A DNA stretch of 64,000 nt from Deltaproteobacteria bacterium (GTDB lineage: Bacteria > Desulfobacterota > JBBIRW01): contig JBBIRW010000006.1 in the NCBI GenBank assembly GCA_037441565.1, positions 71,441 through 135,440 on the forward strand. Reading direction: 5' to 3'. Below the pieces are notes generated by a model. The model searched no databases. It saw only the letters and a list, made by a program, of their open reading frames with translations, and was not told the DNA's origin. Both the position numbers and the translations under genes were made by a program. Below are positions 39,244-57,235 of this stretch, in pieces (positions within the stretch are counted from its first letter, which is position 1; each line of letters starts with the position of its first letter).

Positions 39244-40446
39244 TCATCTATCCATTAAGAGGGGGAGCATATCTTTCTCCCCCTTATCCATTTTTATCCA
39301 CTCAATGAGGATTGATGCGATTTCCATCCGTGTAATCTCTTGAGGGGGGAATATACCCTGCTTGAGCATATCCCTCAATCTTGTTCCACTGAGCATAATA
39401 TGATCCTCATCCGTATGGGGGCAGGTTTTGGGCGATGCCATATTTCCACAGACCTTGCAAAAGAAGGTATTGTCAAAAAAGAGTGGAGTGATGCCAAGTT
39501 CCTCAGGGGAGAATTCCGAAAATATATGCTGTGCATCAAAGGGGCCATAGTAGTTACCAACACCTGCATGGTCCCTCCCCACTATAAAGTGGGTGCATCC
39601 GTAGTTTTTCCTTACAATGGCATGGAATATGGCTTCCCTCGGCCCTGCATATCTCATATAGGCAGGATTCACAGCAAGAATGACCCTTTCGGTGGGGAAA
39701 TAGTTTTTTATGAGGATCTCGTAGCATTTCATCCTTATTTCAGCAGGGATATCGTCCTTTTTTGTTTCCCCTATTATGGGATGAATGAAAAGCCCATCCA
39801 CAATTTCAAGGGCGCATTTCTGAATATATTCATGAGCCCTGTGGATGGGGTTTCTCGTTTGAAACCCCACAATGGTCTTCCAACCCTTTTCTGAGAAGAT
39901 CCTTCTTGTCTCTCCCGGATCAAGCCAGTATTCCTGAAATGCCATCCATTTACCCCTATTTACGAGTGTTATTTTTCCGCCGAGATAAACATCCGGCGAT
40001 TTTTTTAGGCGGTAGACCCCTGGATGCCTGTCATCGGTTGTTCCATATACCAGTATTGCCTCCTTCTCCTTATCAAAAGTAAATCTCTCCTCAAGTTCAA
40101 GAACAGCTACAAGCTCCTTTTCTTCACTATAAAGGGGCACAATACTTCCTTCCCTCAGCTGATCAGCGATTTGCCTGTTGCACGGAAGGGTAATGGGTAT
40201 GGTCCATGGAAGTCCATCAGGGAGGCGCTTTTCATAGAGAACTGACATATATTGCTTTGAATTCATAAATCCTTCAAGAGGGCTTAAGGCACCATTTGCT
40301 ATCATTTCGAGATCACTCATGGTTCTGTTGTCAACAGTCAGACCTTTTGTATCTTTCACGCTTTCTAAGATTTTATCAACATCCGATGGTTTCGCCTTTC
40401 TACTGATAAGTCTTCCCCCATGGGGTTGTATCGATCGGTTCATCAT
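39244..40446 (-). CDS. sat: Sulfate adenylyltransferase (homo-oligomeric type, no APS-kinase domain)
   Basis: PHGG, SPLEGFM, QTRNPIHRAHEY, RYAGPREA, GRDHAG. Confidence 0.95.
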   Translation of the reverse strand: MMNRSIQPHGGRLISRKAKPSDVDKILESVKDTKGLTVDNRTMSDLEMIANGALSPLEGFMNSKQYMSVLYEKRLPDGLPWTIPITLPCNRQIADQLREGSIVPLYSEEKELVAVLELEERFTFDKEKEAILVYGTTDDRHPGVYRLKKSPDVYLGGKITLVNRGKWMAFQEYWLDPGETRRIFSEKGWKTIVGFQTRNPIHRAHEYIQKCALEIVDGLFIHPIIGETKKDDIPAEIRMKCYEILIKNYFPTERVILAVNPAYMRYAGPREAIFHAIVRKNYGCTHFIVGRDHAGVGNYYGPFDAQHIFSEFSPEELGITPLFFDNTFFCKVCGNMASPKTCPHTDEDHIMLSGTRLRDMLKQGIFPPQEITRMEIASILIEWIKMDKGEKDMLPLLMDR

Positions 40447-40763
40447 CCTACTTCCACCTCCTCCAGAATTTTTATGATGAATTCTTCGACAATTCCGCTG
40501 CTATCTTTCAGCGACCATTTTATGTAGTTTCCCTGTATAGATGGAATCAGCGTTGCTCCCCTGTCGGCAAGCTGAAAGGACAGGACTGATATGATTGCAC
40601 CTGATGGACATTCCTTCACGCAGGACATACAATCCCAGCAGTCCCTCTCGGATCTGAGGTACGACTTGTTTCTTTTTTCATCAAAGGCCATAAGATCGCC
40701 GGGGCATATCTCAACACATGATTTGCACCCCTTGCACTTCTCTTCTATCACCCTGACTGCCAT
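40443..40763 (-). CDS. aprB: Short AprB-like 2x[4Fe-4S] subunit
   Basis: CKGCKSCVEICP, CWDCMSCVKECP; lies between aprA and sat. Confidence 0.85.
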   Translation of the reverse strand: MAVRVIEEKCKGCKSCVEICPGDLMAFDEKRNKSYLRSERDCWDCMSCVKECPSGAIISVLSFQLADRGATLIPSIQGNYIKWSLKDSSGIVEEFIIKILEEVEVG

Positions 40764-40776
40764 CGTGAGTTCCTCC

Positions 40777-42501
40777 TTATTTTGGTAGATATCTGTCTCC
40801 AGGAACTATCTGTTCATATTTTCTTTCGATAATCTTGATTTCACCTGATTCTCTGTCCCTGACACTGTTTACAAACTTGAGCCAGTTGAAATCATCCCTT
40901 TCTGGATAATCAAGTCTTGTTTGAAATCCTGGCCATCTTGTTTCTTTTCTGTAAAGAAGGTGTTCAACAAGTACTTCAGCAACATCGATCCTATCTATAA
41001 CTTCATGGGCATGCATCAACTCGTGGTAATCCCTTGCAACAAGGAAATAAATCTGTCCTCTCATTCTTCTTAAATGTTTCCTTGCATAGAGAAGGCGTTC
41101 TTCATTAAGTTCATAAAATACATGGACACCTCCGGCATATTCATCCATGATCTTCTGAAGTCTCTCTTCCATTTGCTCGGGAAAAACACCATCTCTTAGT
41201 TTTTCATACCTGTGAATGGGTGCAAAAACCCTTTGTTCTTCCTGTGATATCTGTTCTTCATCAATGATTCCGAAGGATGAGGAGTATGCATATTTACCTG
41301 CTGACCTTGCTGCAATGATACCCTCTGCCCAGCATCCACTTATGAACTTATAGGGAGCACCACCTGCAACATCACCTGCAGCCCAGAGACCTTCGAGCGT
41401 TGTTTCTCTCTGTGTTGTTATCCAGTATCCTGACTGGCAGTGACCCCCAACTATGTATGGTTCTGTGCCGCATATTTCAACGGGTTCTTCAGAGGGATCA
41501 AATCGATTTGAAGCCCAGTAAAGCACAAGATCGGGATACATATTGAGATAAGATGCCTTCAGATCACGAACCTTTTCAGTAGGTATACCCCTTGTATCCA
41601 TGAAGCACGGTCCTCTGCCCTCCTTTATTTCCTGAACAGGACCATATACCCTTATACATGTTGGAGCACCATCTCCTCCGAGATGGGCGTACTTTTTTGC
41701 CATGAATCTTTCTCCCTTTGCATTCACCTGTGGTGCGCCGAAGCCAAGTGCAAGTGTTCCTGTTGGGGCAATGAGATCCTTGACCCTTAAGGCAATGAAA
41801 CGCATTTCGAAGGATGTCATTTCCGCACCGGCTCTTATACCCATTGCATAACCTGACCCCGTGTTAAAAGGGCTATACCACATTTTGTGATGGCATGTTC
41901 CATCATTATTCGGTCTGTATATTCCAGCAGCACCACCTGTTGCAATTATTGTTGCCTTTGATCTTATCACATAGAATTTTCCATCCCTCACACCAAAACC
42001 CATAACACCAATTACCCTGTTTCCGTGGAGAATAAAGTTTGTTACATTTATTCTATTAAGCACTGTTGTGCCTGATCTTATTGCTGCACGCGCTATTATC
42101 GGTTTAATATGCTCTCCCTCTATCTCAACATTCCATCTCCCCCTCCTCATGTATCTCCCATTCTTATCCTTTTTGATGGGGAGGCCCCATTTTTCGACTC
42201 TGTGAACAGCGTTGTTTATTTCCTCTGCCATTGAAAGGATAAGATCTTCCCTCACAAGCCCCATCGCGTCGAATCGAACATATTTCAGGAAGCTTTCAGG
42301 TGTTTCTCCAGGATGGAGATAAACATTTATTGCATTCATCCCGGCTGCAAGGCATCCGCTTCTCTTTATATGAGCCTTCTCAATTATCATGACCCTGAGA
42401 TCGGGATATCTCGTTTTAGCCTCAACAGCTGCCATACAACCTGCAGTTCCACCTCCGATTATTAAAATATCTGTTTCGAGGTATTCTCTTCTTAATTTCA
42501 T
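40777..42501 (-). CDS. aprA: Adenylylsulfate reductase alpha subunit-like flavoprotein
   Basis: IIGGGTAGC, RSGCLAAG, ATGGAAG, YLNMYP, KFISG, RLQKIMDEYAGG, RKETRWPG. Confidence 0.88.
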   Translation of the reverse strand: MKLRREYLETDILIIGGGTAGCMAAVEAKTRYPDLRVMIIEKAHIKRSGCLAAGMNAINVYLHPGETPESFLKYVRFDAMGLVREDLILSMAEEINNAVHRVEKWGLPIKKDKNGRYMRRGRWNVEIEGEHIKPIIARAAIRSGTTVLNRINVTNFILHGNRVIGVMGFGVRDGKFYVIRSKATIIATGGAAGIYRPNNDGTCHHKMWYSPFNTGSGYAMGIRAGAEMTSFEMRFIALRVKDLIAPTGTLALGFGAPQVNAKGERFMAKKYAHLGGDGAPTCIRVYGPVQEIKEGRGPCFMDTRGIPTEKVRDLKASYLNMYPDLVLYWASNRFDPSEEPVEICGTEPYIVGGHCQSGYWITTQRETTLEGLWAAGDVAGGAPYKFISGCWAEGIIAARSAGKYAYSSSFGIIDEEQISQEEQRVFAPIHRYEKLRDGVFPEQMEERLQKIMDEYAGGVHVFYELNEERLLYARKHLRRMRGQIYFLVARDYHELMHAHEVIDRIDVAEVLVEHLLYRKETRWPGFQTRLDYPERDDFNWLKFVNSVRDRESGEIKIIERKYEQIVPGDRYLPK

Positions 42502-42515: not shown

Positions 42516-42980
42516 TTAGTCTTCTATAATCTGAATGGGACATGGCCTTAAATTAATGAGATCATCAACAACGGATTTGTGGATAATTCTCGAAAGTAAA
42601 GAACCCCTCTTTTTTGTGAGGATACAGAGATCAATGCTATATTTTTTTATAAATCTGATCGATTCAGAAACAAATTCTCCCTTTTCAAGATATATTTCAC
42701 AGGGTATTGAAAATCTCGTTGCCTTCTCTTTTATCTCCTGAAGCCTCCTGTATGCAGACTGTCTGTAGTCTTTCATGATAGCCTGTGTTAACTGCTCACT
42801 TGGTTTGCCACCGAGAAATCCTATGTCGGTTAATTTTTGAAGGATTGATTCCGGTATCTTGCTGTCAAGTATAAATAGAACAAAAAGTGATGCACATTCT
42901 TTCCTGGCTAAATCCATAGCGAAATCTTCTGCCTTCGGAGAATCTGATGCAGTTGAAAGAATTAGCATTATCCTTTTCAT
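42516..42980 (-). CDS. Universal stress protein
   Basis: MKRIML N-terminus, USP size, C-terminal PCPIQII. Confidence 0.7.
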   Translation of the reverse strand: MKRIMLILSTASDSPKAEDFAMDLARKECASLFVLFILDSKIPESILQKLTDIGFLGGKPSEQLTQAIMKDYRQSAYRRLQEIKEKATRFSIPCEIYLEKGEFVSESIRFIKKYSIDLCILTKKRGSLLSRIIHKSVVDDLINLRPCPIQIIED

Positions 42981-42982: not shown

Positions 42983-44413
42983 TTAATTAACCTGTAGACC
43001 CAGTAAAGGCCAGTAAATTTTTGCTGCGAGGTAAATTATTGCAAGTGCCATTATATTCATCAGAAAGCCCAACCTTGCCATATCGGAGATCCTTAGTAAT
43101 CCCGATGAATAAACAATTGCATTTGCTGGCGTTCCAACGGGAAGCATAAAAGCGAGCCCTGCTGAGAGCGTTATTAAAAGCGTAGCAATTCTTACATCAA
43201 AACCAAAAAAGGTGAAAAGGTTTATTCCAATGGGCAAAAGAACAGCGACAACGGATGCATTACTCATTGCTTCTGTGAGAAGCATGGAAGTAGCGATGAG
43301 AAATATTAAGATGGTATGAGGCGATGAAATCCAGTGTTTTACACTATTTTGAGTTAACCATGAAGCTGCACCGGTGGTTTCGAGTGCCTTTCCGAGACAG
43401 ATTGCTCCACCGTACATTAAAATTACACCCCAGTTGACATACTCCTCAAGATCTTTCCATCTGATCAATTTAAATATAAAAAGTGATATAGATGCGATAA
43501 ACGAAATATTTGCAAGACCAATTTCATGTCCATATGTTGACCATGCAATTACAGTCAGGAGAAGGATGAGCAAAATAAATTTTTCATCCATGCCCATCCT
43601 TCCAATCTGTTTGATTTTTTCTTCAATGACTCTCTTCATATCATTTATGCTAACACCTTCATAATTTGCGGATTTAAATATTAATACAAGAGCTATAATG
43701 CTTAAAGAAGCAACAGCTGGAAATGAGTAAGTTATCCATTCAAAAAATCCTATTTTTACTCCGCTCATCTCATAAAGTATTCCGATGGCAAGTGGTGTTC
43801 TCGCTCCCCCGAGAAATGTTGCAATGCCACCAATAATGCAACCCCATGATAAGGAGAGCATCAGATTTCTTGAATATTTTCTATTCATTAATGTTGGGTT
43901 GCAGGATTTTGCTAATTCCATTACAGTTGGAAACATGAAAGCTGCAACTGCATGCTCCGTGATAAAAAATGACATGATAGCGGAGATTATGAAAATGCTT
44001 ATAAGTAATCTTCTTGGTGATGTGGCAAATCTGTTTAGAACAAGAAGTGAAATCCTTGTGCTTATTCCTGATTTCATAACAGAAGCTCCAAGTATAAATG
44101 CGCCGAGTATAAAAAAGACTGCCTCATTGCCAAATAGCGAATACGCCTTTTTCGTATCCATTATCCCGAGGAGGGGGATAAGTGTTATAGCAAGAAGACC
44201 TGTTACTGCAGGCGGTAACAATGTAAAGACCCAGAGCGGAACGCATAATGCAAAAACGGCAAGAACCTTTTTCCCTTCAGGAGTTAAGCCGGTTGGCTGA
44301 GGAAGCTGAAGTATGTAGAGAAAAATCGCCGCTATAACTGCGAAAGCTAAATACCGTGAAAACCTGCTGAGTATAACAATAAGTATGGGCCTTTTATCAA
44401 TTACATATTCCAT
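42983..44413 (-). CDS. DASS/SLC13 anion symporter (sulfate candidate)
   Basis: Multi-TM; IGGIATFLGGART, TEAMSNAS, FMLPVGTPANA. Confidence 0.85.
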   Translation of the reverse strand: MEYVIDKRPILIVILSRFSRYLAFAVIAAIFLYILQLPQPTGLTPEGKKVLAVFALCVPLWVFTLLPPAVTGLLAITLIPLLGIMDTKKAYSLFGNEAVFFILGAFILGASVMKSGISTRISLLVLNRFATSPRRLLISIFIISAIMSFFITEHAVAAFMFPTVMELAKSCNPTLMNRKYSRNLMLSLSWGCIIGGIATFLGGARTPLAIGILYEMSGVKIGFFEWITYSFPAVASLSIIALVLIFKSANYEGVSINDMKRVIEEKIKQIGRMGMDEKFILLILLLTVIAWSTYGHEIGLANISFIASISLFIFKLIRWKDLEEYVNWGVILMYGGAICLGKALETTGAASWLTQNSVKHWISSPHTILIFLIATSMLLTEAMSNASVVAVLLPIGINLFTFFGFDVRIATLLITLSAGLAFMLPVGTPANAIVYSSGLLRISDMARLGFLMNIMALAIIYLAAKIYWPLLGLQVN

Positions 44414-44420: not shown

Positions 44421-45641
44421 TTAATCCTCGGAGATTTTCTTCACCCTCAAAAATCTTCTAAGATTTGAAATACTTTTCTGGATTTTTATTCCAAAAGAGG
44501 ATTTCGAAAGATTATTTATTATATCAAAGAGGGCTGCGCTTTCTCCTGAAAAGAATCTTCCCTCTATAGGTGTTGCAATGATACTTACTTCTTTTATCCA
44601 GTTCATATTTAGTTTATTTTTCCTAACCCTTTTATAAAGATGGATGTATACCGGGATGAGATCTTCTGGCTTGATCTCCTTGAATGGAGTGATAAAACTA
44701 TCAAAATAATTAAAGATGGGAAGGATAGGTATTATACCCCTTTTTGTAAGATAGTCTATCGCCTGAATGGTTGATTCAACAGATTCGAGACCGACAAAGA
44801 TATTTGTTGAGACTGCGCCGGAAGGAAAAGCAGTTGTTGCATACTCAAGGGCTTCAAGATACCTTTCCCTTCCTATTATTGCGGATCTGAGGGGGAGCAG
44901 AAGTGAAAAAACATCGGGATCAAAGACAAACATATTATATCTTATAGAATCCACTCCAATAGCATAACTCCAATCTATCCACTCATTTATCTTTGGTGGA
45001 AATGCGTCAACAGAGATCATGAGGCCAAAATTTTTTCTTATAGATCTTATATATGGCTGAAGGATAAATATCCCCCTGTCTTCTGAATCAACATAACCCA
45101 TTGAGAGATGAACTATCTCAATCCTTTTTTCCTTAAGACAGGTTTCTATGGTTTCCATTATTTCATCAAGGGGCTTTATTGATCTCTTCAGTTCACCCTT
45201 TAGCATCATCTCCTCGCACTGAATGCATTCCATATGGTTAAAGGAAAGCTTGCATCTTCCCATGGGGAAGATTGTGAGAAGATTTCCATGGAAGGAGCAT
45301 ATTTCACCGATAAGCGTTCCCCATCGCGTTCTTTTAAAATAAAAGTCAGGGAACTGCGAGATCTGGACCGGAATCTGGATTCCATCTTTTATGAGAAAGT
45401 ATCTGTCCTCTTTTTTCTCCAGTAGATAAGGAGATGAGGATAAAAAGGTATTATAGAGCGGGGCTGCTACAGGGGTGCTGTCATTAATTATTATATCAAG
45501 GGAATTGATCAATCCATCAGCGATAGCTTCATTTCTTATTGATCCGTTTTCGATAACTGAAGGGTGAATGTGAACCCCGCTTATCAGAAGATCGAGTTTC
45601 AGATATCCTGGATTTAAACGCAGTTCCTCTAAATTTTTCAT
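44421..45641 (-). CDS. Radical SAM-like protein with non-canonical Cx8Cx2C motif
   Basis: CKLSFNHMECIQC; IFVGLES barrel segment. Confidence 0.65.
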   Translation of the reverse strand: MKNLEELRLNPGYLKLDLLISGVHIHPSVIENGSIRNEAIADGLINSLDIIINDSTPVAAPLYNTFLSSSPYLLEKKEDRYFLIKDGIQIPVQISQFPDFYFKRTRWGTLIGEICSFHGNLLTIFPMGRCKLSFNHMECIQCEEMMLKGELKRSIKPLDEIMETIETCLKEKRIEIVHLSMGYVDSEDRGIFILQPYIRSIRKNFGLMISVDAFPPKINEWIDWSYAIGVDSIRYNMFVFDPDVFSLLLPLRSAIIGRERYLEALEYATTAFPSGAVSTNIFVGLESVESTIQAIDYLTKRGIIPILPIFNYFDSFITPFKEIKPEDLIPVYIHLYKRVRKNKLNMNWIKEVSIIATPIEGRFFSGESAALFDIINNLSKSSFGIKIQKSISNLRRFLRVKKISED

Positions 45642-45655: not shown

Positions 45656-45904
45656 TTAACTGCTTGATTTTCTTATAACTATCTGCCAGTCCGTTTCGTT
45701 TATCTGGCTGACATCTAAAATTTCGTGCCCTTCCATCTCCATACTCCTTGGAACATTCTGGGTTGCAGGAATATGGTCAACTATAACCTTGAGGATTGTG
45801 CCAGGTTCCATCTCCTCAAGGGCAAGTTTTGATTTAACAAAAGTATAAGGACACACTTCACCTTTAAGATCTAATTCCCTATCCGCAACTATTTCCTTTT
45901 TCAT
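45656..45904 (-). CDS. tusA: TusA-family sulfurtransferase
   Basis: LDLKGEVCPYT. Confidence 0.88.
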   Translation of the reverse strand: MKKEIVADRELDLKGEVCPYTFVKSKLALEEMEPGTILKVIVDHIPATQNVPRSMEMEGHEILDVSQINETDWQIVIRKSSS

Positions 45905-46972
45905 AGTTTTTATCCTCCTTTAAAAGGATTTCTTCAATCCTTATTTCTTTCAATATCCTTCCGATGTCATCCTGTTGGGGCAAGAATGGATAGTTTCTGA
46001 AGGGTTTGCCAGGCCTTGTGTGGGCAAAAGGTCTGTTGCATGCAAGTTCTCCTGATAAATCAGGGCAACCTGATGTCATAAATGGTTTCCCTGTTAGAAT
46101 CAAGTCATGAATTATTTGAGGATCTATGTTTATTGAAGATATTCTTCCCTTGTTATCAAATCTGATGTCTTTCTCCGATAAAATATGATTTTTCTCTACC
46201 ATGTATCTTATAAGTTGAATCCTTCTGTATCTCTTCATTGAAGGTGTTCTTCTCTTCTCAAGCACAGTTCCCTTTTCAGGTGTGAAACTGAAGAGATGAC
46301 ACATAATTTTATTTCTTTTAAGGAAAAAGAAGATATCCACAAGTTCCTTATCCGTTTCGCCAAGGCCAACGACGATATGGCAGCTTACCTTCTCATCTCC
46401 AAAAATCTCAACACCATCAATCAGCGTTTCCACATACCTTTCCCACCGCAGTGAGGCTTTTACACCACTTCCCCTTCGTTTCTCAAAGACCCTCTTTGAT
46501 GGCGCATCAAGACCAACACCGAGGATATCGAATCCATTTTCTTTAATAGTGATCAACTTATCCTTATTGATACACATGGGGGAAATGAGCGCAGAGAGTG
46601 GAATTGATGTTATCTTTCTTAACTTTCTTCCAATCTCTAAGAGATCCTTATATGCATATGGATGGTTTATCATGGATATACAAATCCTTTTTATTTTTGA
46701 TTCATAACGAATGATTCTTCTCAATATCTCATCAAAAGGATAGAGTGGCCAGTCTACCCTGATAAAGGTTTTTTCACCAAAGTTTCCAGATCGTGAAAAG
46801 GAAAGGCCGCAATATGCACAACTTCCATAGCATCCTTCTTCATATGAGAGGAGCAGGTTAAGGCATCGTGGATATGCATCTCTAAAAAATCTGCCACCCA
46901 TCAGTTTCAGCATCATAACGCCTGCCAGCGATGTCCTTATATAAAGGGAAGAGATTTTATTTTCCATCTTCA
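45879..46972 (-). CDS. lipS2: Radical SAM lipoyl synthase, LipS2-type
   Basis: CYGSCAYC; C-terminal TSGCPD...CNRP; adjacent to the ligase; start approximate. Confidence 0.75.
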
Positions 46973-50117: not shown

Positions 50118-50138
50118 CTCCTCTGAAACTTCATATCC

Positions 50139-50489
50139 TTAAAAATCTATTGTGTGATTTGCATCAAGTAAGAGTCGGAGAGCCTCTTTCCTGCTTATAA
50201 CCCTCACAAAAGGGGAAAGCTCTTTGCTGTTTATCCCTCTTTCCTTCAGGGATTCCTCTTCCGCATATATACTGGAATTTATTCCTGTAAGCGTCTGGAT
50301 ATATTTTGCAGAATCCTTTCTGTCAACATTATTTAATGCATAATAAACACCATCACCTAAAAGTAGCACATCAACGGTGTGCTCATCGATACCGGATGTA
50401 ACACCAACTGCTGCCCTTAGCCCCTCGGTGTAATATATGGAACCAAAGGGTGGATGGGTTATCATGACAACAACCTTTTTTTCAGCCAT
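50139..50489 (-). CDS. DsrF/TusC-like protein (set 2)
   Basis: HPPFGS, EGLR, GDGVY, ESLKERG. Confidence 0.78.
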   Translation of the reverse strand: MAEKKVVVMITHPPFGSIYYTEGLRAAVGVTSGIDEHTVDVLLLGDGVYYALNNVDRKDSAKYIQTLTGINSSIYAEEESLKERGINSKELSPFVRVISRKEALRLLLDANHTIDF

Positions 50490-50500
50490 TTCCTACCTCC

Positions 50501-50854
50501 TTAAAGTGTAATAATCCTGTCCACTTCGCCGATTATCTCAGCGAAGTCAGGAAGCCCTCCGACCTTGACCTGGTCAATATAATCCTTTCCATTCTCAAGA
50601 CCACGGGCATTTACACATATTCCACATGCTATTATCTTACCCCCCTTCTTCAGGATATCAGCCCAGCAATCCTTGGGTAGCGTTTCCATATCAGGAAACT
50701 TCTGATACCTTATGGGATTATAAACGCCATCGAGATAGTAAAAAATAAGCACATCATGTTTCATCTCAAGTGCAGCGTTTGCTATATGATATGCCGTTTC
50801 CCAGTTTTCAAACTGATATGGCCCAAGTGTAAGTAGAATTCCGATCTTTGCCAT
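50501..50854 (-). CDS. DsrE/TusD-like protein (set 2)
   Basis: GPY, YLDGVY, ACGICVNARG, GGLPDF. Confidence 0.8.
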   Translation of the reverse strand: MAKIGILLTLGPYQFENWETAYHIANAALEMKHDVLIFYYLDGVYNPIRYQKFPDMETLPKDCWADILKKGGKIIACGICVNARGLENGKDYIDQVKVGGLPDFAEIIGEVDRIITL

Positions 50855-50932: not shown

Positions 50933-51193
50933 CTACCAGCATATTACCCTGTCATGGGAAAAAATAAGGTCAACAATCTGATCATAATCCAGGGATTTGT
51001 CAATATTAAGTCCTCTTGCCTGAAGATCATCCCTGCAGAAGAAAACCCTGAGGGGGTAATTCATCTCCTTCCTCAACGAATATACCCCATCATGGATAAA
51101 AAGAAGCGAGACCTCGTGTTTCTCTGATTGTTCAAGAGCAACCTTCAGTGCGGTTTCATCATCCGGGTTTCTCAAAATATGAAGTATTTTCAT
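50933..51193 (-). CDS. DsrH/TusB-like protein (set 1)
   Basis: MKILHI, HDGVY, DDLQARG, DYDQIV, VICW. Confidence 0.75.
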   Translation of the reverse strand: MKILHILRNPDDETALKVALEQSEKHEVSLLFIHDGVYSLRKEMNYPLRVFFCRDDLQARGLNIDKSLDYDQIVDLIFSHDRVICW

Positions 51194-51196
51194 TGC

Positions 51197-51541
51197 TTAA
51201 TAGACGATCAATATATCGCTTTTTGCAATCTCCTCAATTATCTCTTTCCTTTTCTTTAGCTCTACATTGTAAGGGATATCATTTATAAGTCTCTTTTTCA
51301 CGTCCTCCTGATCGGCAATTATCATACCTTTCAGATGCGGTAGTGTTTCAAGATGCTTTGAAAGATCATTCATATTGATTATTTCTGGCTTTAATCTGGT
51401 TATGGCATATGTGCCATTTTCCAGGAAGATTACCTGAATTTTATCGTCTGATAGTGTTAAACCTACACCCATTCGCAAGGCTTCAGAAACCCTTGTTGTA
51501 TTAAGTGGAAGACTTCTTATAAGAACAGTTATTGTTCTCAT
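51197..51541 (-). CDS. DsrF-like protein (set 1)
   Basis: EALRMGVGL, FLENGTY. Confidence 0.7.
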   Translation of the reverse strand: MRTITVLIRSLPLNTTRVSEALRMGVGLTLSDDKIQVIFLENGTYAITRLKPEIINMNDLSKHLETLPHLKGMIIADQEDVKKRLINDIPYNVELKKRKEIIEEIAKSDILIVY

Positions 51542-51548
51542 CCCTCAC

Positions 51549-51857
51549 TCAATTAAAAGAAAGAAATCTGTCAGCAGTGTGTGCAATCTGCGCAAGATCC
51601 CACTGACTTCCCCAGACAACCTCATCAATTTTGTTTATACCTCTTTCAATTGCATTGTGGGCACAGACAACGATACGGACACCCTTTGATGAAAGTTTGA
51701 TGAAGTTTTCAAATTTCAGATTATATACACCATCAGCCATAAGAAATATTTCCACATGCATATTTTTTCTAAGTGCAGCTTCAGATAATTTAATAACGGT
51801 TCTCACATCCTCACTCTCAGATGATGTTGTGAGCAGTATACCAAGTTTCTTTCTCAT
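51549..51857 (-). CDS. DsrE-like protein (set 1)
   Basis: FLMADGVY, VCAHNAIERG, GSQWDL. Confidence 0.78.
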   Translation of the reverse strand: MRKKLGILLTTSSESEDVRTVIKLSEAALRKNMHVEIFLMADGVYNLKFENFIKLSSKGVRIVVCAHNAIERGINKIDEVVWGSQWDLAQIAHTADRFLSFN

Positions 51858-52270
51858 ACGATCTCAATTTCCTCCTCTTCAAATTCCCCATCCTCATCTT
51901 GAAGAACCCATGATCTGGCTGTTTTGAATCTTCCCTCGTTAATGGAAACAATTATGTAGGAATAGAGGGGCCAGGCCCTCTTTCTATCAAAGATTGAAGG
52001 AAATGGGGGATTATCAGGGTGGGAATGAAAAAAGCCGATTATCTCCTTTCCGCAAGCCCTTATCTTCTCTTCAGTTCTAAGGATCTCCCTCGGGTCAATT
52101 TCATACCTATCCCTGGCCCTTTCCCTATTTATGTTTTCTGTTGGATATACCATGGATACCCTTTTTTTATTCTTTTCTATCTTCCCCACAAGGATACCGC
52201 AGACTTCAAATGGATATCCTTGTTCGGATAATTTTATTATTTCCTCCCAGACCTCCTTTTCTATCTCCAT
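51854..52270 (-). CDS. JAB/MPN (M67) metallopeptidase, Mec-like
   Basis: YPFEVCGIL, HSHPD...PS.FD JAMM motif. Confidence 0.9.
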   Translation of the reverse strand: MEIEKEVWEEIIKLSEQGYPFEVCGILVGKIEKNKKRVSMVYPTENINRERARDRYEIDPREILRTEEKIRACGKEIIGFFHSHPDNPPFPSIFDRKRAWPLYSYIIVSINEGRFKTARSWVLQDEDGEFEEEEIEIV

Positions 52271-52274: not shown

Positions 52275-53216
52275 TTAATAAATCTCCCAGAGCCTGCTAC
52301 TCAGATATTTATCGCCACCATCTGGGAATATTGTTACAATAACACCTTCGTCCAGATCTTTTATTATCTGCAGCACACCAGCAAGTGCAGCACCTGATGA
52401 AATCCCTACCAGAAGTCCTTCCTCCCTTGCAAGTCTCTTCACACACTCATAAGCCTCCTCTGTTTTTACCTTTATTATGCCATCAAGGAATTTTTCGTCG
52501 AATATACCTGGAATAATTGCAGTCTCCATATGTTTGAGGCCTTCTATTCCATGAAGGGAGGTGTCAGGCTCTACACCTATAACTTTTATCTTTTTGTTGA
52601 ATTCCTTAAGTCTTCTTCCCGTTCCCATTATCGTCCCGCCTGTTCCCACACCGGCGACAAAGTGCGTTATCCTTCCTTCAGTTTGAAGGATAATCTCAGG
52701 GCCTGTTGATTCGTAATGTGCAAGTGGATTGCACGGGTTGTTATATTGATCGGGCATGAAATATTTATCAGGGTTTTCCATATATCTCCTGTGGGCTTCC
52801 TTTATTGCCCCATCGGTTCCTTCAAGTGGATCTGTATATATAATTTCTGCACCATATGCCTTAAGGATCTTTTTTCGTTCCTCACTCGCATTCTTCGGCA
52901 TCACAAGTTCGACCCTGTATCCCTTTATAGCTGCGATCATCGCATATGCAATTCCTGTATTGCCGGAGGTCGAATCAAGTATTATCTTATCCTTTGTTAA
53001 CTTTCCTGTTCTTTCACCATCAAGGATCATCTTTAGTGCAGGCCTGTCTTTTACCGATCCTCCGGGATTGAACCATTCAAGCTTTGCATAAACCTCAACC
53101 TTTTTAAAATCTCTTGTTATGTTGTTTAATTTTATAAGCGGTGTGTTTCCAACAAGATCCAGTATGTTTCTTGTGCGAAAGTTTTTATCAGGCTCAACAT
53201 TAAGTCCTTTTTTCAT
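52275..53216 (-). CDS. cysM: Cysteine synthase (CysM/CysK family)
   Basis: GNTPL, NPGGSVKDR, TSGNTG, GVGTGGT, FPDGGDKYLS. Confidence 0.88.
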   Translation of the reverse strand: MKKGLNVEPDKNFRTRNILDLVGNTPLIKLNNITRDFKKVEVYAKLEWFNPGGSVKDRPALKMILDGERTGKLTKDKIILDSTSGNTGIAYAMIAAIKGYRVELVMPKNASEERKKILKAYGAEIIYTDPLEGTDGAIKEAHRRYMENPDKYFMPDQYNNPCNPLAHYESTGPEIILQTEGRITHFVAGVGTGGTIMGTGRRLKEFNKKIKVIGVEPDTSLHGIEGLKHMETAIIPGIFDEKFLDGIIKVKTEEAYECVKRLAREEGLLVGISSGAALAGVLQIIKDLDEGVIVTIFPDGGDKYLSSRLWEIY

Positions 53217-53240: not shown

Positions 53241-54050
53241 TTAATGTCTGATATTGCAGAATTCATCATAATCTATAAGCTGCCTGATGGTCGGATTATC
53301 TCCACACAGAGGACATTGAGGGTTTTTCTTTAACTTTAATTCACGAAAAGACATCTTCAGTGCATCGAAAATGAGCAACCTTCCAGTTAATGTCTTCCCT
53401 ATTCCAAGGAGGATCTTTATTGTTTCAACTGCCTGTATTGTCCCGATAATTCCCGGAAGCACACCGAGAACGCCTGCCTCCTGACAGCTTGGAACCATAC
53501 CGGGCGGCGGGGGTTCTGGATAGAGGCATCTGTAACAGGGCCCATTCTTTGGATCAAAAACCGTTGCCTGACCTTCAAATCTGAATATGCTTCCGTGAAT
53601 ATTTACCTTTCCTGAAAGCACACAGGCATCATTGACAAGATATCTTGTAGGAAAGTTGTCACATCCATCAACAATAACATCATAATCCTTTATTATTCCA
53701 AAAATGTTTTCTGAGGTAAGTTTTTCTTTATAGGAGATAACCTTTATATCGGGATTGAGCGCAGTTAAAGTCTCCTTTGCAGATTCAACCTTTGGCTTGC
53801 CTATATCGTTTGTTGAATGAAGGATCTGTCTCTGAAGGTTTGAGATATCAACGATATCAAAATCAACAATACCTATTGTTCCTATACCAGCTGCAGCGAG
53901 GTAGTATGCAGCCGGTGAACCAAGTCCACCTGCTCCTATAAGGAGGACCCTGGATGAAAGAAGTTTTTTCTGACCCTTCCCTCCAACTTCCGGAAGGATG
54001 ATATGGCGGCTGTATCTTTTTATCTGGTCTTCAGTAAATGACATCTTCAA
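53241..54050 (-). CDS. MoeB/ThiF adenylyltransferase (no rhodanese domain)
   Basis: RYSRH, GAGGLG, SNLQRQ, CYRC, PSCQEAG, CPLC. Confidence 0.92.
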   Translation of the reverse strand: MKMSFTEDQIKRYSRHIILPEVGGKGQKKLLSSRVLLIGAGGLGSPAAYYLAAAGIGTIGIVDFDIVDISNLQRQILHSTNDIGKPKVESAKETLTALNPDIKVISYKEKLTSENIFGIIKDYDVIVDGCDNFPTRYLVNDACVLSGKVNIHGSIFRFEGQATVFDPKNGPCYRCLYPEPPPPGMVPSCQEAGVLGVLPGIIGTIQAVETIKILLGIGKTLTGRLLIFDALKMSFRELKLKKNPQCPLCGDNPTIRQLIDYDEFCNIRH

Positions 54051-54067: not shown

Positions 54068-54310
54068 CTATTCAATTATGTTCAATTCAACAGGTTCTAC
54101 TTTTATCTCTTTTTCTTTGAGAAAATTTATTGCCTTTTCCAGTTCCTCCCTTTCCCCCTCCATTTCAAGAGCAACAATACCAATCTCATCTGAAACACTT
54201 GCCTGTCTTATGTTTGTTATAACATCAAAATTTTTGCCCACCATCCATATGATGGGTTCCTTTATAAGCTTCTGGGGAAATGTTAACCATACTTTAATCT
54301 TTTCCCTCAT
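54068..54310 (-). CDS. Stand-alone NIL-domain protein
   Basis: LTFP...EPII...TNIRQA pattern, 80 aa. Confidence 0.75.
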   Translation of the reverse strand: MREKIKVWLTFPQKLIKEPIIWMVGKNFDVITNIRQASVSDEIGIVALEMEGEREELEKAINFLKEKEIKVEPVELNIIE

Positions 54311-54319: not shown

Positions 54320-54601
54320 TCAAATAACTCCTCCTGCTATTGCAGGAACAATGGAGATTTCATCTCCATCATTTAGTTTCGTTGTTATATTATCGAGAAA
54401 TCTGATATCCTCCTGATTTACATAGATGTTTACAAATTTTTTAACTTCACCATTTTCATCACAGATCCTTTCCTTCATCCCTGGAAATTCCCTGTCCAGA
54501 TATTCGATGACCTCCGCCACTGTACTCCCTTCAGCCTTTACCTCCTCCAGACCCTTTGTTAGTCTTCTTAAAGGTGTTGGAATCCTCACTGTTACTCCCA
54601 T
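54320..54601 (-). CDS. MoaD/CysO-like ubiquitin-fold sulfur carrier with GG-VI C-terminus
   Basis: VRIPTPLR, FVNIYVN, VPAIAGG followed by VI. Confidence 0.9.
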   Translation of the reverse strand: MGVTVRIPTPLRRLTKGLEEVKAEGSTVAEVIEYLDREFPGMKERICDENGEVKKFVNIYVNQEDIRFLDNITTKLNDGDEISIVPAIAGGVI

Positions 54602-54629: not shown

Positions 54630-55877
54630 TTATTTCTTTGAATGTTTTTTTCTTTCCTTTAGAAACTGATCAAATTCCGAAAGCTTGGCATTTATAATCA
54701 CAGGATCGGGAATCCTTCCATAAACGGCTTCCTGTGTCTTTAAACCATTTCCAGTTATACATAGCACAATGGATTCATCACGCGGGATTATGCGTTTATC
54801 TATCAATTTCTTTGCAACACCAACAGTAACTCCACCGGCAGTTTCTGCAAATATACCTTCTGTTTTTGCGAGTATTTTAATTCCTTCAATAATTTCCTCA
54901 TCGGATACATCTTCACCATATCCACCACTTTCCTTCATGGTCTTGATTGCATAATATCCGTCTGCAGGATTTCCTATAGCAAGCGATTTTGCAATTGTTG
55001 ATGGTTTAACAGGTGTGAATATATCCTTCCCCTGTTTTATAGCAGTCACTATTGGTGCACACCCTGAAGCCTGTGCGCCGTATATCTTTGCTTCATTCTT
55101 TTTTATAAAACCGAGCTTTTCAAATTCAATAAATGCTTTCCAGATCTTTGTTATGAGAGAACCTCCAGCCATAGGAACTACTATGTGCCTTGGTGTCCTC
55201 CAGCCAAGCTGCTCCATGATTTCGTATCCGAAGGCCTTGGACCCCTCTGCATAATAAGGTCTGATGTTGATATTTACAAACGCCCAGCCGTATTTGCCAG
55301 CTATTTCGCTGCAGAGTCTGTTTACCTCATCATAAGTACCCCTGATACCTATAAGGCAGGCACCGTAAATGCTCGTTCCGATTATTTTCCCCTGCTCCAG
55401 ATCCGCTGGAATAAATATATAGCTTTCCATTCCGCTTTGAGCAGCCTGTGCGGCAACAGAGTTGGCGAGATTTCCCGTTGATGCGCATGCAACAATTTGA
55501 AAACCGAACTCCCTTGCCTTTGATATAGCAACAGAAACCACTCGATCTTTAAATGAAAGGGTTGGATGATTTACTGCATCATTTTTAATGTAAAGTTCCT
55601 TTACTCCAAGCACCTTTGCCAGATTGTTTGCTCTGATCAGCGGAGTAAATCCAACATCCACACCCACAGTTGGTGGAAAATCAAGGGGGAGCAGTTCCCT
55701 GTATCTCCACATGTTTGCAGGACGCCTTACAATGGTCTCCCGTGTAAGCGACTTTTTTATCTCATCATATTTGTAGACAACCTCGAGAGGACCGAAACAG
55801 AATTCGCATACATGTAGCGGTTCTTTGGGATATTCCCTTCCACATTCCCTGCATCTTAGACCTTTTACAAAGCTCAT
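54630..55877 (-). CDS. Threonine synthase-like PLP enzyme with N-terminal Zn ribbon
   Basis: CRECG...CEFC; PTLSFKDR; ASTGN; ITGNGLK. Confidence 0.85.
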   Translation of the reverse strand: MSFVKGLRCRECGREYPKEPLHVCEFCFGPLEVVYKYDEIKKSLTRETIVRRPANMWRYRELLPLDFPPTVGVDVGFTPLIRANNLAKVLGVKELYIKNDAVNHPTLSFKDRVVSVAISKAREFGFQIVACASTGNLANSVAAQAAQSGMESYIFIPADLEQGKIIGTSIYGACLIGIRGTYDEVNRLCSEIAGKYGWAFVNINIRPYYAEGSKAFGYEIMEQLGWRTPRHIVVPMAGGSLITKIWKAFIEFEKLGFIKKNEAKIYGAQASGCAPIVTAIKQGKDIFTPVKPSTIAKSLAIGNPADGYYAIKTMKESGGYGEDVSDEEIIEGIKILAKTEGIFAETAGGVTVGVAKKLIDKRIIPRDESIVLCITGNGLKTQEAVYGRIPDPVIINAKLSEFDQFLKERKKHSKK

Positions 55878-55917: not shown

Positions 55918-56745
55918 TTAATTTCCAGAGGCACATAACATCTCTCCTGCAGTTCTAATTGGTTTTCTGATTGAGGCATGAGGTCCACAGACAGGACAAC
56001 TGCTATTTCTTTTTATTTTAATTTCGCTAAAAGAAAGATAGAAGGCATCTATGAAAAGTATTCTATCAATAAGAAAATCCCCTATCGAAAGGATTACCTT
56101 TATAACCTCGGCTGCCTGTATGAGTCCTGCTATTCCTGCAACCGGTCCCAGTATTCCCGCTTCCTGACATGTTGGGACAGCTCCTTCAGGAGGTGGTGAT
56201 GGGATTAAACAGCGATAACAGGCACTTCTTCCCGGAAGAACCGTCATAACATGACCAAATAGCCTGACTACAGCGGCTATTACAAGAGGTTTGCCTGATA
56301 GGATAGATGCATCATTGACAAGCAGTTTTGTCGGGATATTATCAGAGCCTTCAGCTATTACATCATATCCATCTATGATATCCATTATATTTTTTTCATC
56401 GATCCTGAGATCGTAAGTCTCAACTTTTACATCAGGGTTGAGGGTGGTGATCTTTTCACAGGCGGAAAGTGTCTTTGGTTTTCCTATGTCCTTTGTAAAA
56501 TGGATTATCTGACGATGTAGATTTGATAACTCAACCCTGTCTCCATCCACAATCCCTATCCTGCCTACCCCGGCTGCCGCAAGGTAAAGTGCGGCAGGTG
56601 AACCGAGTCCTCCTGCTCCGACAATCAGCACGCTGGATGCGAGAAGCTTCTTCTGCCCCTTCCCTCCAAGTTCTGGAAGGATGATATGCCTGCTATATCT
56701 TCTTATCCTTTCTTCGGTAAGTTCATTAAGCATAGATTGGGCCAT
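55918..56745 (-). CDS. Second MoeB/ThiF adenylyltransferase
   Basis: RYSRH, GAGGLG, SNLHRQ, CYRC, PTCQEAG, CPVC; start taken at ATG just after the Rrf2 stop. Confidence 0.9.
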   Translation of the reverse strand: MAQSMLNELTEERIRRYSRHIILPELGGKGQKKLLASSVLIVGAGGLGSPAALYLAAAGVGRIGIVDGDRVELSNLHRQIIHFTKDIGKPKTLSACEKITTLNPDVKVETYDLRIDEKNIMDIIDGYDVIAEGSDNIPTKLLVNDASILSGKPLVIAAVVRLFGHVMTVLPGRSACYRCLIPSPPPEGAVPTCQEAGILGPVAGIAGLIQAAEVIKVILSIGDFLIDRILFIDAFYLSFSEIKIKRNSSCPVCGPHASIRKPIRTAGEMLCASGN

Positions 56746-56746
56746 T

Positions 56747-57235
56747 CTATATAAATTCTGCTTCCCCATTTTTTATTGATTCCAGTCCGAGCTTTTTCCC
56801 CTTCTGACAGAGATCCTTTATGCTTATTGAATCAAAGAATTCACTTATCCGATCCTCAAGCTCCTTCCATATTGGGGTTGTGATACATTTATCGGCGCAA
56901 TTTGTTTTTAGATTACAGTTTGGTCTGATGGAGAACCGGGGAGTCTTCCTGAATTCGTCACAGAATACAAGCCTTATGGGTCCTTCAGTAGCCCTGATTA
57001 TGTCACCGATTGTAATTTTTTCCGGTTCCCTGACAAGAAAATATCCTCCTGACCTCCCCCTTCTGCTCCTCACAATCTCGGCCCTTTTCAATTTCTGGAA
57101 GATCTGTTCAAGATAACGCGGAGGTATCTTCTGCCTTTTAGAGATGTCTTTTATCTGGGCACATTTTCCATCAGCGTAGTATGCAATATCAAAAACAGCC
57201 CTTACCCCGTATCTTATCTTTGTATTAAGCCTCAT
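56747..57235 (-). CDS. Rrf2-family regulator (IscR/CymR-like) with Cys-rich segment
   Basis: RYG, YLEQIF, SRRGRSGGY, C...C...C...C before PIW. Confidence 0.9.
   Translation of the reverse strand: MRLNTKIRYGVRAVFDIAYYADGKCAQIKDISKRQKIPPRYLEQIFQKLKRAEIVRSRRGRSGGYFLVREPEKITIGDIIRATEGPIRLVFCDEFRKTPRFSIRPNCNLKTNCADKCITTPIWKELEDRISEFFDSISIKDLCQKGKKLGLESIKNGEAEFI

Follow-up and report, generated by a model that had tools for sequence, protein, structure and literature searches.

A cluster of 26 genes within a 64,000-nucleotide stretch of a Deltaproteobacteria genome (GenBank assembly GCA_037441565.1, contig JBBIRW010000006.1; the whole 64-kb stretch is called the window here) brings together genes of sulfate activation, genes of a thiocarboxylate type of cysteine and homocysteine synthesis, and a block of genes around a lipoate-binding protein of the LbpA type. 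The parts are of known kinds. New, in the sense of being undescribed in the main texts of the literature, is a module of LbpA, DsrMK-like proteins, DsrEFH and TusA that is recurrently linked to the biosynthesis of sulfur-carrier proteins; no paper joining these pieces was found in main texts, as the initial annotation of the sequence had surmised. The reading favoured here, with a probability of somewhat under one half (about 0.45), is a biosynthetic relay in which sulfate would be converted to cysteine and homocysteine via protein-bound sulfur rather than free sulfide, a quinone-linked lipoyl relay feeding the MoeB/MoaD proteins. In the following, the genome studied is designated G000, its sole congener G001, and a genome from another family of the same phylum G026; further G numbers denote genomes, L numbers fetched loci and C numbers contigs of G000, and coordinates without a prefix refer to the window. 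The assembly of G000 is bacterial, comprises 1.87 Mb in 24 contigs and is 98% complete; the sequencing runs containing DNA of the locus are labelled subsurface metagenome.

The 26 open reading frames are all situated on the minus strand and tile positions 39244-57235, with no gap exceeding 96 bp and with overlaps of 1-38 bp in seven places, and a Pfam family is assigned to each of them at E <= 0.001. The families follow each other in the order Rrf2, ThiF/MoeB, PALP (ThrC-like), ThiS/MoaD, NIL, ThiF/MoeB, PALP (CysM), JAB, two sets of DsrE-DsrE-DsrH, TusA, GCV_H, radical SAM, lipoate ligase, radical SAM, TusA, a further radical SAM, DASS, Usp, FAD flavoprotein, 2x[4Fe-4S] ferredoxin and ATP sulfurylase, such that the number, common direction, order and families of the genes given in the initial annotation were borne out by Pfam (26/26) and NCBIfam. 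BLASTN of the 18 kb was run against 30 relatives. G001 exhibits 94% nucleotide identity across the full 18 kb (query 7-17992) and possesses 26/26 of the cluster genes, with protein identities of 85-100%. In G026, the cluster genes lie on one contig in the same order as in G000, with three additions. Genes for a 338-amino-acid (aa) NIR_SIR/ferredoxin protein and for a TusA of 84 aa separate the thrC-like gene from moaD; tusA1 and lbpA are separated by the gene of a 643-aa protein that joins a NarI-like membrane part to two CCG domains and two [4Fe-4S] motifs; and there is an extra moeB-cysM pair. The cluster of G018 comprises a thrC-like gene, a gene for a small siroheme sulfite reductase (Sir), tusA, moaD, NIL, cysM, JAB, moeB, a radical-SAM gene, DASS and usp and continues with genes for APS (adenosine 5'-phosphosulfate) kinase, a GGDEF protein, PAPS (3'-phosphoadenosine 5'-phosphosulfate) reductase and sat, with no lipoate, DsrEFH or Apr genes; the clusters of G023 and G005 resemble it (thiocarboxylate genes, DASS and, in part, sat) and are likewise devoid of the lipoate block. 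The 26-gene cluster is thus a real, conserved and single assimilatory operon, and the lipoate/DsrEFH block is an insert present in some lineages only, since it is absent from the clusters of G018, G023 and G005.

The block itself is a separate, widely conserved module consisting of DsrEFH set 2, TusA1, a DsrM-like protein, a DsrK/HdrD-like CCG protein, LbpA, and LipS1, LipS2 and the ligase. Its central protein, LbpA, scores under both GcvH cut-offs, and its Lys70, located in the motif LEAGK, is invariant in two alignments. Identities are 54-72% within the subfamily and 33-39% to the LbpAs of sHdr-type loci, by which sequence comparison the LbpA of the cluster is a distinct subfamily. Elsewhere, G000 encodes LipA (353 bits), lipoamide dehydrogenase and two GcvH paralogues with better scores, so that the ligase, LipS1 and LipS2 of the cluster would constitute a second, dedicated lipoylation system.

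A metagenome scan with the LbpA subfamily yielded 162 confirmed relatives, 80 of which were analysed; 22 of these loci are long, i.e., with at least 8 kb of total flank. A DsrMK-like gene is found near lbpA in 51 of the 58 loci whose upstream flank reaches 600 bp or more; for upstream flanks of at least 2.5 kb and of at least 4 kb the counts are 31 of 32 and 24 of 24, respectively, and in all of the latter 24 contigs lbpA follows the DsrK-like gene. The same 24 loci contain tusA in 21, dsrEFH set 2 in 20 and moeB in 9 cases. Lipoylation genes are present in 18 of the 22 long loci, and at least one thiocarboxylate-type gene in 9. Near the LbpA subfamily, aprA, aprB or sat were encountered in none of the 80 metagenome contigs. 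A corresponding LipS1 scan of genome contigs gave 407 confirmed relatives, 80 of them analysed, mostly in sHdr-like or plain lipoylation contexts; in seven of the 80 the cluster-type LbpA is accompanied by a DsrMK-like gene, mostly with tusA and dsrEFH set 2 as well. The seven loci are a G001-like one, G026, a Nitrospinota locus with cysM-JAB adjacent, two Planctomycetota/Brocadiales, a Pseudomonadota-labelled metagenome-assembled genome (MAG) and a Desulfobacteraceae MAG. The proposed linkage of the lipoate/DsrEFH/TusA block to thiocarboxylate genes hence recurs in other genomes and phyla. Its proposed linkage to sat/apr is conserved in G001 and G026 and fails in the metagenome contigs (0/80); it is confined to the lineage of G000.

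Of the two DsrEFH-like sets, the first contains a single cysteine in DsrE1 (Cys65) and is found with moeB, JAB or tusA in G020 and G024, and the DsrE2 protein of the second possesses Cys63, Cys77 and Cys80, with Cys65 and Cys77/Cys80 as candidate active-site residues; the score against the DsrEFH model TIGR03012 is 39.9 bits at a cut-off of 89. The pair tusA2-moeB recurs in G026, L117, L119, L124, L125, L134, L135 and L170, and in 14 of the 80 metagenome loci a MoeB2 homologue (55-71% identity) is encoded beside dsrEFH or tusA.

Several variants of the module were observed. In L171 (4197-7176) and L184 the DsrM-like gene is lacking, and a lipoamide-dehydrogenase-like flavoprotein and an LplA-radical-SAM fusion are encoded upstream of the DsrK-like gene and lbpA. 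In L134, an AIR-synthase-related gene (PurM/SelD/ThiL-type; 8781-9770) is situated between the DsrK-like gene and lbpA. Second-tier LbpA-like proteins, with 113-142 bits to the subfamily profile, occur in 37 of 201 sampled genomes of the phylum; in all 12 fetched loci (L191-L202) they lie beside DsrK/HdrD-like CCG genes, none with DsrEFH or TusA, and LipS1 and LipS2 are both nearby in 4 of the 12. An NCBIfam model named 'GcvH_rel_desulf' exists. The couple of LbpA and CCG protein may be more general than sulfur metabolism.

The orthologue of the 643-aa protein of G026 is split in two in G000 and located on C1 (46% and 39% identity). This DsrMK-like pair has five hydrophobic segments, and 18 cysteines, corresponding to the two [4Fe-4S] and the two CCG motifs, are invariant in 29 DsrK-like sequences; the DsrK-like protein remains under the DsrK equivalog (NF045796, 98 bits vs 400). 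The complex of LbpA with the DsrK-like protein was predicted in three runs with alignments of 29 and 33 rows and with three controls. The ipSAE values were 0.67, 0.47 and 0.69 (median 0.67), with 0.00 for the best control; in the calibration of the method, 58 of 80 solved complexes and 2 of 110 mismatched pairs attained this mark. Agreement of contacts among runs was at least 80%, and the pLDDT of the partner at least 88. The modelled interface comprises residues 46-52, 55, 62-67 and 72-74 of LbpA, around Lys70, and residues 133-148, 171-176 and 370-374 of the DsrK-like protein, near the invariant Cys167, Ser170, Ser172, Pro173 and Gln176. To the extent of the model's confidence, the lipoyl-lysine hairpin of LbpA is thus predicted to dock on the CCG site. 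A remembered complex is an unlikely source of this result, because the lists of PDB matches of both chains share no entry. Among solved structures, the DsrK-like protein comes closest to 9ojn, a 1042-aa 'iron-sulfur-binding reductase' (219 bits), which presumably belongs to the quinone-reducing EtfD/EMO kind.

Five CCG-domain loci exist in G000: an HdrB-like one, a GlcF-like one, an EMO-like one without adjacent etfAB, the DsrMK-like pair and a weak match on C16. Neither shdrC1B1AHC2B2 nor the type II set shdr-etfAB-emo was found among them, the weak C16 match being unannotated, and DsrC/TusE (PF04358) has no match in the 98%-complete genome. The sole HdrB-like gene of G000 lies beside split glutamate-synthase genes: on C4:27527-32242 (L015:7528-12243), HdrB-/HdrC-like genes are located directly upstream of three pieces of the glutamate synthase large subunit. 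A 664-aa protein encoded in the window (12668-14662, plus strand), in which two CCG domains and two Fe-S motifs are combined with a membrane part resembling NarI/QmoC and the gene of which stands alone after mla genes, was rejected as the partner of LbpA, with 33% identity to the G026 protein vs 46% for the orthologue on C1. It is also 33% identical to proteins of 716-725 aa beside etfAB-sized genes in the type II sHdr-like loci L039 and L048, and is probably, by sequence, an EMO/EtfD-type quinone oxidoreductase outside the module.

Table 1. Genes of the cluster in the window and of the DsrMK-like pair on contig C1, with coordinates, strand and the matches on which the assignments are based
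Feature	Position	Strand	Match
Rrf2-family regulator, operon head	56747..57235	-	PF02082 125.9 bits; TIGR00738 127 bits vs cut-off 73
MoeB/ThiF-type E1-like adenylyltransferase 1 (MoeB1), no rhodanese	55918..56769	-	PF00899 260 bits, residues 25-260 of 283
ThrC-like pyridoxal-phosphate (PLP) enzyme, N-terminal Cys-rich ribbon; candidate MetM-type homocysteine synthase	54630..55877	-	PALP 231 bits
MoaD/ThiS-fold sulfur carrier, ends AIAGG-VI	54320..54601	-	PF02597 67 bits
NIL-domain protein, 80 aa, no cysteine, split-off MoaD partner	54068..54310	-	PF09383 49.8 bits
MoeB/ThiF-type adenylyltransferase 2 (MoeB2)	53241..54050	-	PF00899 303 bits
CysM-type cysteine synthase	52275..53216	-	TIGR01138 402.7 bits vs 394.2
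JAB/MPN metalloprotease, Mec/HcyD-like	51854..52270	-	PF14464 79.9 bits
DsrE/DsrF/DsrH-like set 1, three genes	50933..51857	-	PF02635, PF02635, PF04077
DsrE/DsrF/DsrH-like set 2, three genes	49845..50854	-	PF02635 72 bits, PF02635, PF04077
TusA 1, motif GKICPYT	49587..49835	-	PF01206 74.7 bits
LbpA-type lipoate-binding protein, lipoyl-Lys70 in LEAGK, no cysteine	49104..49553	-	PF01597 111 bits
LipS1 lipoyl synthase	48199..49104	-	NF053742 233.6 bits vs 230
Lipoate-protein ligase, LplA catalytic + C-terminal domain	46957..48102	-	PF21948, PF10437; TIGR00545 168 < 280
LipS2-like radical SAM protein	45879..46994	-	NF053743 best match, 211.5 bits < cut-off 270
TusA 2, motif GEVCPYT	45656..45904	-	PF01206 79.9 bits
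Variant radical-SAM protein, Cx8CxxC	44421..45641	-	NF045502 'variant_rSAM' 125.5 vs 125
DASS-family anion symporter, candidate sulfate importer	42983..44413	-	PF00939 216 bits; TIGR00785 247 vs 199
Universal stress protein (Usp)	42516..42980	-	PF00582 30.7 bits
APS-reductase alpha, short assimilatory (MtPAPSR-like) clade	40777..42501	-	NF005331 813.6 vs 557
Short beta subunit (106 aa) with 2x[4Fe-4S]	40443..40763	-	best PDB match 8a8o_C, 80 bits
ATP sulfurylase (Sat)	39244..40446	-	PF01747 325 bits + PUA_2; NF003166 562 vs 387
NarI-like membrane gene, 255 aa	C1:350540-351307		PF02665
DsrK/HdrD-like CCG gene, 397 aa	C1:351309-352502		Fer4 + 2x CCG

Concerning sulfite reduction, the initial annotation had stated that no siroheme sulfite reductase, DsrAB or sHdr gene is present in the cluster, which is true of the 18 kb, and had taken the reduction step to be missing, which is not supported. 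A genome-wide search with PF01077 revealed one NIR_SIR protein in G000, on C2:300894-303248 (minus strand; L012:8895-11249); the search which that annotation had proposed thus found a sulfite reductase candidate, contrary to its idea, and in accordance with it no canonical sHdr set. The protein is a member of the NirA/Sir family of 784 aa with two NIR_SIR_ferr (2x PF03460) and two NIR_SIR (2x PF01077) domains and carries a TusA domain at its C-terminus (residues 714-781), and a further tusA (C2:304203-304418) is located about 1 kb away. Sulfite is favoured as its substrate because of the fused TusA and the neighbouring tusA. G001 contains a similar NIR_SIR frame of 792 aa, as judged from the NIR_SIR part. 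A small NIR_SIR protein and tusA are situated inside the homologous cluster in G026, G018, G023 and G022, and in G026 the lipoate block is present as well. As a candidate Sir occurs in the genome of G000 and small Sirs lie inside the clusters of relatives, lipoate presumably fills no missing sulfite-reduction step.

Sir and tusA are direct neighbours in G026, G018, G023, G022 and L134; G201 (Nitrospinota) possesses Sir-tusA-cysH and G206 (Planctomycetota) Sir-cysM-JAB-tusA in one run, such that this adjacency extends, beyond G000, to at least seven genomes or contigs from three phyla. The Sir proteins of G000 (784 aa) and G026 (338 aa) are non-orthologous, with 26% identity over 149 aa. The recurrent pairing with TusA suggests that the Sir product may be handed on as a persulfide, and it agrees with a 2026 abstract, according to which assimilatory sulfite reductases directly yield S0.

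Sulfite itself would be provided by Sat and the AprAB-type enzyme, as had been proposed; judged from the genes present, this is the only route to sulfite found in G000, where tblastn with the proteins of a relative at 1e-4 detected neither APS kinase (CysC) nor CysH. In G018, CysC and CysH occupy the cluster position of AprAB. In the PDB, the best matches of both subunits belong to the assimilatory PAPS reductase of Methanothermococcus thermolithotrophicus (8A8O); the AprA-type subunit matches 8a8o_A with 673 bits (residues 8-567) and AprA of A. fulgidus with 405 bits, and both subunits remain under the dissimilatory cut-offs (TIGR02061, 469 bits vs 642; TIGR02060, 73 bits vs 136). The beta subunit has eight cysteines. 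In the methanogen M. thermolithotrophicus, Lys120, Arg121 and Ser122 are named as conferring the PAPS traits of the enzyme (PMC10322725). R122-W123-N124 aligns to these residues in G000, Arg-Trp-Asn is also found in G026, and A. fulgidus AprA exhibits Gln-Trp-Gln at this position; since the motif keeps the Trp of A. fulgidus AprA, the substrate is probably APS, and we infer an APS-reducing member of the assimilatory clade. By sequence, the short assimilatory AprAB, initially discovered in a methanogen, thus has a bacterial counterpart of probable APS type. QmoC was not found in G000 (best score 36 bits vs a cut-off of 300; AprM was not searched), nor was a YeeE/YedE importer. AprA-like proteins of at least 45% identity occur in 20 of the 201 sampled genomes of the phylum, 3 of these 20 having a first-tier LbpA and 8 a second-tier LbpA-like protein, and 40 genomes have either tier; these co-occurrence counts are given no weight, because the tiers were set after the scores had been seen and related genomes are not independent. 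A GAF-GGDEF gene (37135-38925, plus strand) is located just past sat and convergent with it, and in G018 a GAF-GGDEF gene (L025:13693-14784) is situated between the genes for APS kinase and PAPS reductase.

The thiocarboxylate branch is organised around the MoaD-type carrier, which exceeds the cut-offs of SAMP1 and moaD_arch and ends in Gly-Gly plus two residues. Whereas moaD and NIL are separate genes 9 bp apart in G000, MoaD::NIL fusions with AIAGG at the junction are found in G026, G023, G020, G022 and L134 (L023:3020-3535, L026:8989-9504, L027:10615-11136, L028:11833-12348 and L134:16313-16831). Since AIAGG is followed by VI here and by NIL in the fusions, the JAB protease would be needed to expose the Gly-Gly. 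MoeB1, the sequence of which contains two CxxC pairs and the cysteine of a PTCQEAG motif, and MoeB2 consist of 269-283 aa with the ThiF domain only and score 270 and 382 bits with MoeZ models vs 647; because both are without a rhodanese domain, sulfur must reach them from separate carriers. The best PDB match of CysM is 2bhs (CysM, 261 bits), and M. tuberculosis CysM (3dwg) gives 205 bits. The ThrC-like enzyme scores 294 bits vs 167 with TIGR00260, and its best PDB matches are threonine synthases, with about 200 bits; a second ThrC paralogue with 37% identity is encoded on C1. According to a preprint (GapMind 2026), MetM resembles threonine synthases and is frequently misannotated as such, and the ThrC-like enzyme is a candidate for the MetM type of the MetO/MetM/Mec/MoeZ route. 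The methanogen protein MA1821 was dropped as a counterpart, as the respective paper shows it to be DUF39. In L134, a radical SAM/SPASM gene (1709-2902) follows the thrC-like gene.

Family membership supports putative functions of the operon in activating sulfate, reducing APS, adenylating and trimming the carrier, and forming C-S bonds by means of PLP. In the relay favoured here, DASS would import sulfate, Sat would make APS, and the short AprAB of the assimilatory clade would convert APS to sulfite, which a siroheme reductase would reduce: the Sir-TusA fusion encoded elsewhere in G000, the small Sir of the cluster in relatives. TusA may capture the reduced sulfur as a persulfide, and DsrEFH set 1 and TusA2 may pass it to MoeB/MoaD. 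MoeB1 and MoeB2 would adenylate the carrier, JAB would remove the two residues after its Gly-Gly and release the products, and CysM and the ThrC-like (MetM-type) enzyme would form cysteine and homocysteine, respectively, both from the MoaD-thiocarboxylate. The lipoyl arm of LbpA would dock on the CCG site of the DsrMK-like pair, which appears to have moved to C1 in G000, and its dithiol/disulfide (or persulfide) state could be coupled to the menaquinone pool; in this way the lipoyl relay would enable cells to generate, retain or resolve the protein persulfides from which thiocarboxylates are formed. The midpoint potential is about -0.29 V for lipoamide and about -0.07 V for menaquinone, so that the oxidation of dihydrolipoyl-LbpA by quinone would be the easier direction, and electron flow towards quinone fits the conversion of sulfide to protein persulfide. 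The reductive direction would suit the resolution of acyl-disulfides or of lipoyl-bound S0; the direction of electron flow is not settled.

Several points weigh against this relay. By family likeness, dissimilatory sulfur oxidation is the only setting in which LbpA is known to be associated with Hdr-like CCG, TusA and DsrE-type proteins, and no acceptor is assigned to either DsrEFH set. Within reach of 13 of the 22 long metagenome loci there is no thiocarboxylate gene, and the module of L172 is flanked by genes which, as far as annotated, are unrelated. Conversely, G018, G023, G005, G022 and G020 have thiocarboxylate genes and no first-tier LbpA, so that the module is not required for thiocarboxylate formation as such. 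The DsrMK-like pair of G000 is unlinked to the cluster and lies among unrelated genes on C1, and the score of its predicted complex with LbpA is a confidence of the model, obtained with the alignments made for this analysis, not a measurement. The best NCBIfam model for the siroheme protein on C2 is NirA, but the NirA, Sir and CysI equivalogs all remain under their cut-offs, and sequence scores cannot separate a sulfite from a nitrite reductase in this case. RNA sequencing runs were searched for the locus, and none containing it was found.

Unlikely is an oxidative function, in which a minimal membrane-bound counterpart of sHdr-LbpA would oxidise protein sulfane sulfur to sulfite and deliver the electrons to menaquinone, with AprAB and Sat running in reverse, yielding sulfate and ATP, and DASS exporting the sulfate; the thiocarboxylate genes would then draw on the same persulfide pool. 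The list of parts (LbpA, dedicated LipS1/LipS2/ligase, TusA, DsrE-family and CCG-type Fe-S proteins) indeed mirrors sHdr, electron transfer from dihydrolipoamide to quinone is favoured by the redox potentials given above, the structure 9ojn, nearest to the DsrK-like protein, is presumably of the quinone-reducing EtfD/EMO kind, and DsrAB-like pairs occur in G204 and G205, MAGs that carry a related module. However, AprA and AprB belong to the assimilatory clade of 8A8O and stay below the dissimilatory cut-offs, their positional equivalents in G018 are APS kinase and PAPS reductase, apr or sat near the module are found in 0/80 loci, and QmoC and YeeE/YedE were not found in the genome. In addition, an Rrf2 regulator heads the operon, genes of cysteine and homocysteine biosynthesis are interleaved in it, and a futile cycle would result from the sulfite reductase that the genome or the cluster encodes as well.

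Lipoate-dependent sulfur assimilation, in which lipoyl-LbpA in the role of DsrC would take S0 from a TusA-coupled Sir or from sulfide, be serviced by the DsrMK-like proteins and load MoeB/MoaD, is doubtful. Its narrower form, which amends the idea of the initial annotation, appears quite unlikely: lipoyl-LbpA would be the co-substrate of Sir, converting sulfite to lipoyl-bound S0 (persulfide or trisulfide), the DsrMK-like proteins would balance the redox state with menaquinol, and DsrEFH and TusA would carry the sulfane sulfur to MoeB/MoaD. All components (Sat, AprAB, Sir(-TusA), DsrMK-like, DsrEFH, TusA and LbpA) are present in G000, which at 98% completeness has no match to DsrC/TusE, the clusters of G026 and L134 hold Sir, tusA, both dsrEFH sets, the DsrMK-like gene(s) and lbpA together, and the docking model would place the lipoyl hairpin on the CCG site. 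Yet Sir+TusA clusters without LbpA exist in G018, G023 and G022, a Sir is within reach in only 1 of the 22 long LbpA-module loci, and the non-orthology of the Sirs of G000 and G026 argues for a generic sulfite reduction step.

An improbable alternative is that the block is only a neighbour, i.e., a self-contained redox/sulfur module for persulfide/polysulfide detoxification or a general LbpA:quinone couple inserted in the operon. This would account for its absence from the homologous clusters of G018, G023 and G005, for the module of L172 standing alone among unrelated genes, and for the pairing of LbpA-like and DsrK/HdrD-like proteins without DsrEFH/TusA in the 12/12 fetched loci of other genomes of the phylum. 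On the other hand, adjacency to MoeB, CysM, JAB or MoaD is observed in several phyla (9 of the 22 long loci, as well as Nitrospinota L049, L134 and L177), and in G000 and G026 the block is situated mid-operon, co-directional and tightly packed, between the thiocarboxylate genes and tusA2/moeB. The original proposal that the lipoate/DsrEFH/TusA/rSAM block replaces a missing sulfite reductase, suggested by the lack of a NIR_SIR gene in the 18-kb cluster of G000 or G001, is largely refuted and highly improbable in view of the Sir-TusA fusion in G000, the 792-aa NIR_SIR frame in G001, the coexistence of an in-cluster Sir with the lipoate block in G026 and L134, and a third radical-SAM gene that follows DASS/Usp instead of the lipoate genes.

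The thiocarboxylate part of the cluster has counterparts in Mycobacterium tuberculosis, which reportedly synthesises cysteine by CysO-CysM-Mec-MoeZ, and in Wolinella succinogenes, which is said to possess an HcyS-HcyD-HcyF-MetY methionine cluster. The Wolinella cluster reportedly shares the sulfate-activation genes and a thiocarboxylate carrier that needs a JAB protease, whereas a ThrC-like enzyme takes the place of MetY here and the operon additionally contains the lipoate module, TusA proteins, two DsrEFH-like sets and a branch leading to cysteine. For Streptomyces, a MetO-MetM-Mec-MoeZ homocysteine route is given in a preprint (GapMind 2026). A MoaD-fold Gly-Gly carrier, an E1-like enzyme, a JAB hydrolase and CysM-type and ThrC-like PLP enzymes are common to the CysO/MetO routes and the present cluster; there are, however, clear differences, as the rhodanese domain of MoeZ is absent from both E1-like proteins here, the carrier is fused or adjacent to NIL, and both branches are combined with sulfate activation in one operon. 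The sulfate assimilation of M. thermolithotrophicus (Nat Microbiol 2023, PMC10322725) likewise involves an ATP sulfurylase and a FAD/[4Fe-4S] reductase of dissimilatory ancestry in assimilatory use, whereas in G000 no APS kinase was found and R-W-N replaces K120-R121-S122; sulfite is reduced by Fsr there and presumably by a NirA/Sir-type-TusA fusion here.

Sulfur oxidation by sHdr-LbpA is described for Hyphomicrobium, Thioalkalivibrio and Aquifex (eLife 2018, PMC6067878; PLoS Biol 2023, PMC10332631; Protein Sci 2024, PMC11094781). As in that system, a GcvH-like lipoate-binding protein with its own ligase and LipS1/LipS2, TusA, DsrE-family proteins and a likely CCG Fe-S partner are found here. 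There are some differences: no sHdrC1B1AHC2B2 was found in G000, the partner being a NarI-like membrane protein plus an HdrD/DsrK-like protein, LbpA belongs to a separate subfamily, and three-gene DsrEFH-like sets in a biosynthetic context take the place of single DsrE3-type genes. The DsrMK(JOP)-DsrC system of dissimilatory sulfur metabolism, as reported (PMC10861901, PNAS 2024), equally combines a membrane quinone subunit with a cytoplasmic CCG subunit and a small dithiol carrier, with DsrEFH/TusA as feeders; in G000, in contrast, the DsrK model is not reached, both CCG motifs are complete, no DsrC/TusE or DsrAB was found, and the carrier would be a lipoyl arm instead of two cysteines. Neither LbpA together with HdrD, DsrK or DsrMK, nor TusA together with an assimilatory Sir and thiocarboxylate proteins was found in the main texts of the literature; the same holds for LbpA together with thiocarboxylate proteins. 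Contexts of LbpA or DsrEFH that lack sHdr or DsrAB may be contained in supplementary files (PMC10332631, PMC11094781, PMC13293266).

LbpA has so far been known from dissimilatory sulfur oxidation by sHdr, and is encountered here in a DsrMK/HdrED-like pairing, presumably quinone-linked, in several phyla. If the module feeds the carriers, it bears on an old question, namely by which means protein persulfide is obtained from sulfide or sulfite in anaerobes if cysteine itself is what has to be made. Should lipoate-dependent assimilation be true, anaerobes would obtain protein persulfides without cysteine desulfurase, and lipoate would be a biosynthetic sulfur carrier.

The third radical-SAM protein, with 28.6 bits just under the Pfam cut-off of 29.5, had been regarded as part of the lipoate block, a view that does not stand: its gene adjoins DASS in G026, G018, G023 and G005, and Usp too in G026, G018 and G023, and it belongs with DASS/Usp because it is kept there where lipoate genes are absent (G018, G023, G005). 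An Atlas look-up of the protein gave unnamed radical-SAM clusters only. The stretch rSAM-DASS-usp extends over positions 42516-45641 of the window and has counterparts in L025, L026, L030 and L023. Concerning transcription, consensus scans for promoters and terminators revealed no excess (53 vs a shuffle mean of 49.9 and 21 vs 15.7) and are thus uninformative as to transcription units. The Rrf2-family regulator at the head of the operon scores under the cut-offs of the IscR and CymR equivalogs. Elsewhere in the genome, G000 possesses genes of a Pup system, namely a proteasome ATPase (C8:9247-10962; TIGR03689, 641 bits) and a Pup ligase (C1:347957-349378; PF03136, 454 bits); its near relatives are labelled Thermodesulfobacteriota.

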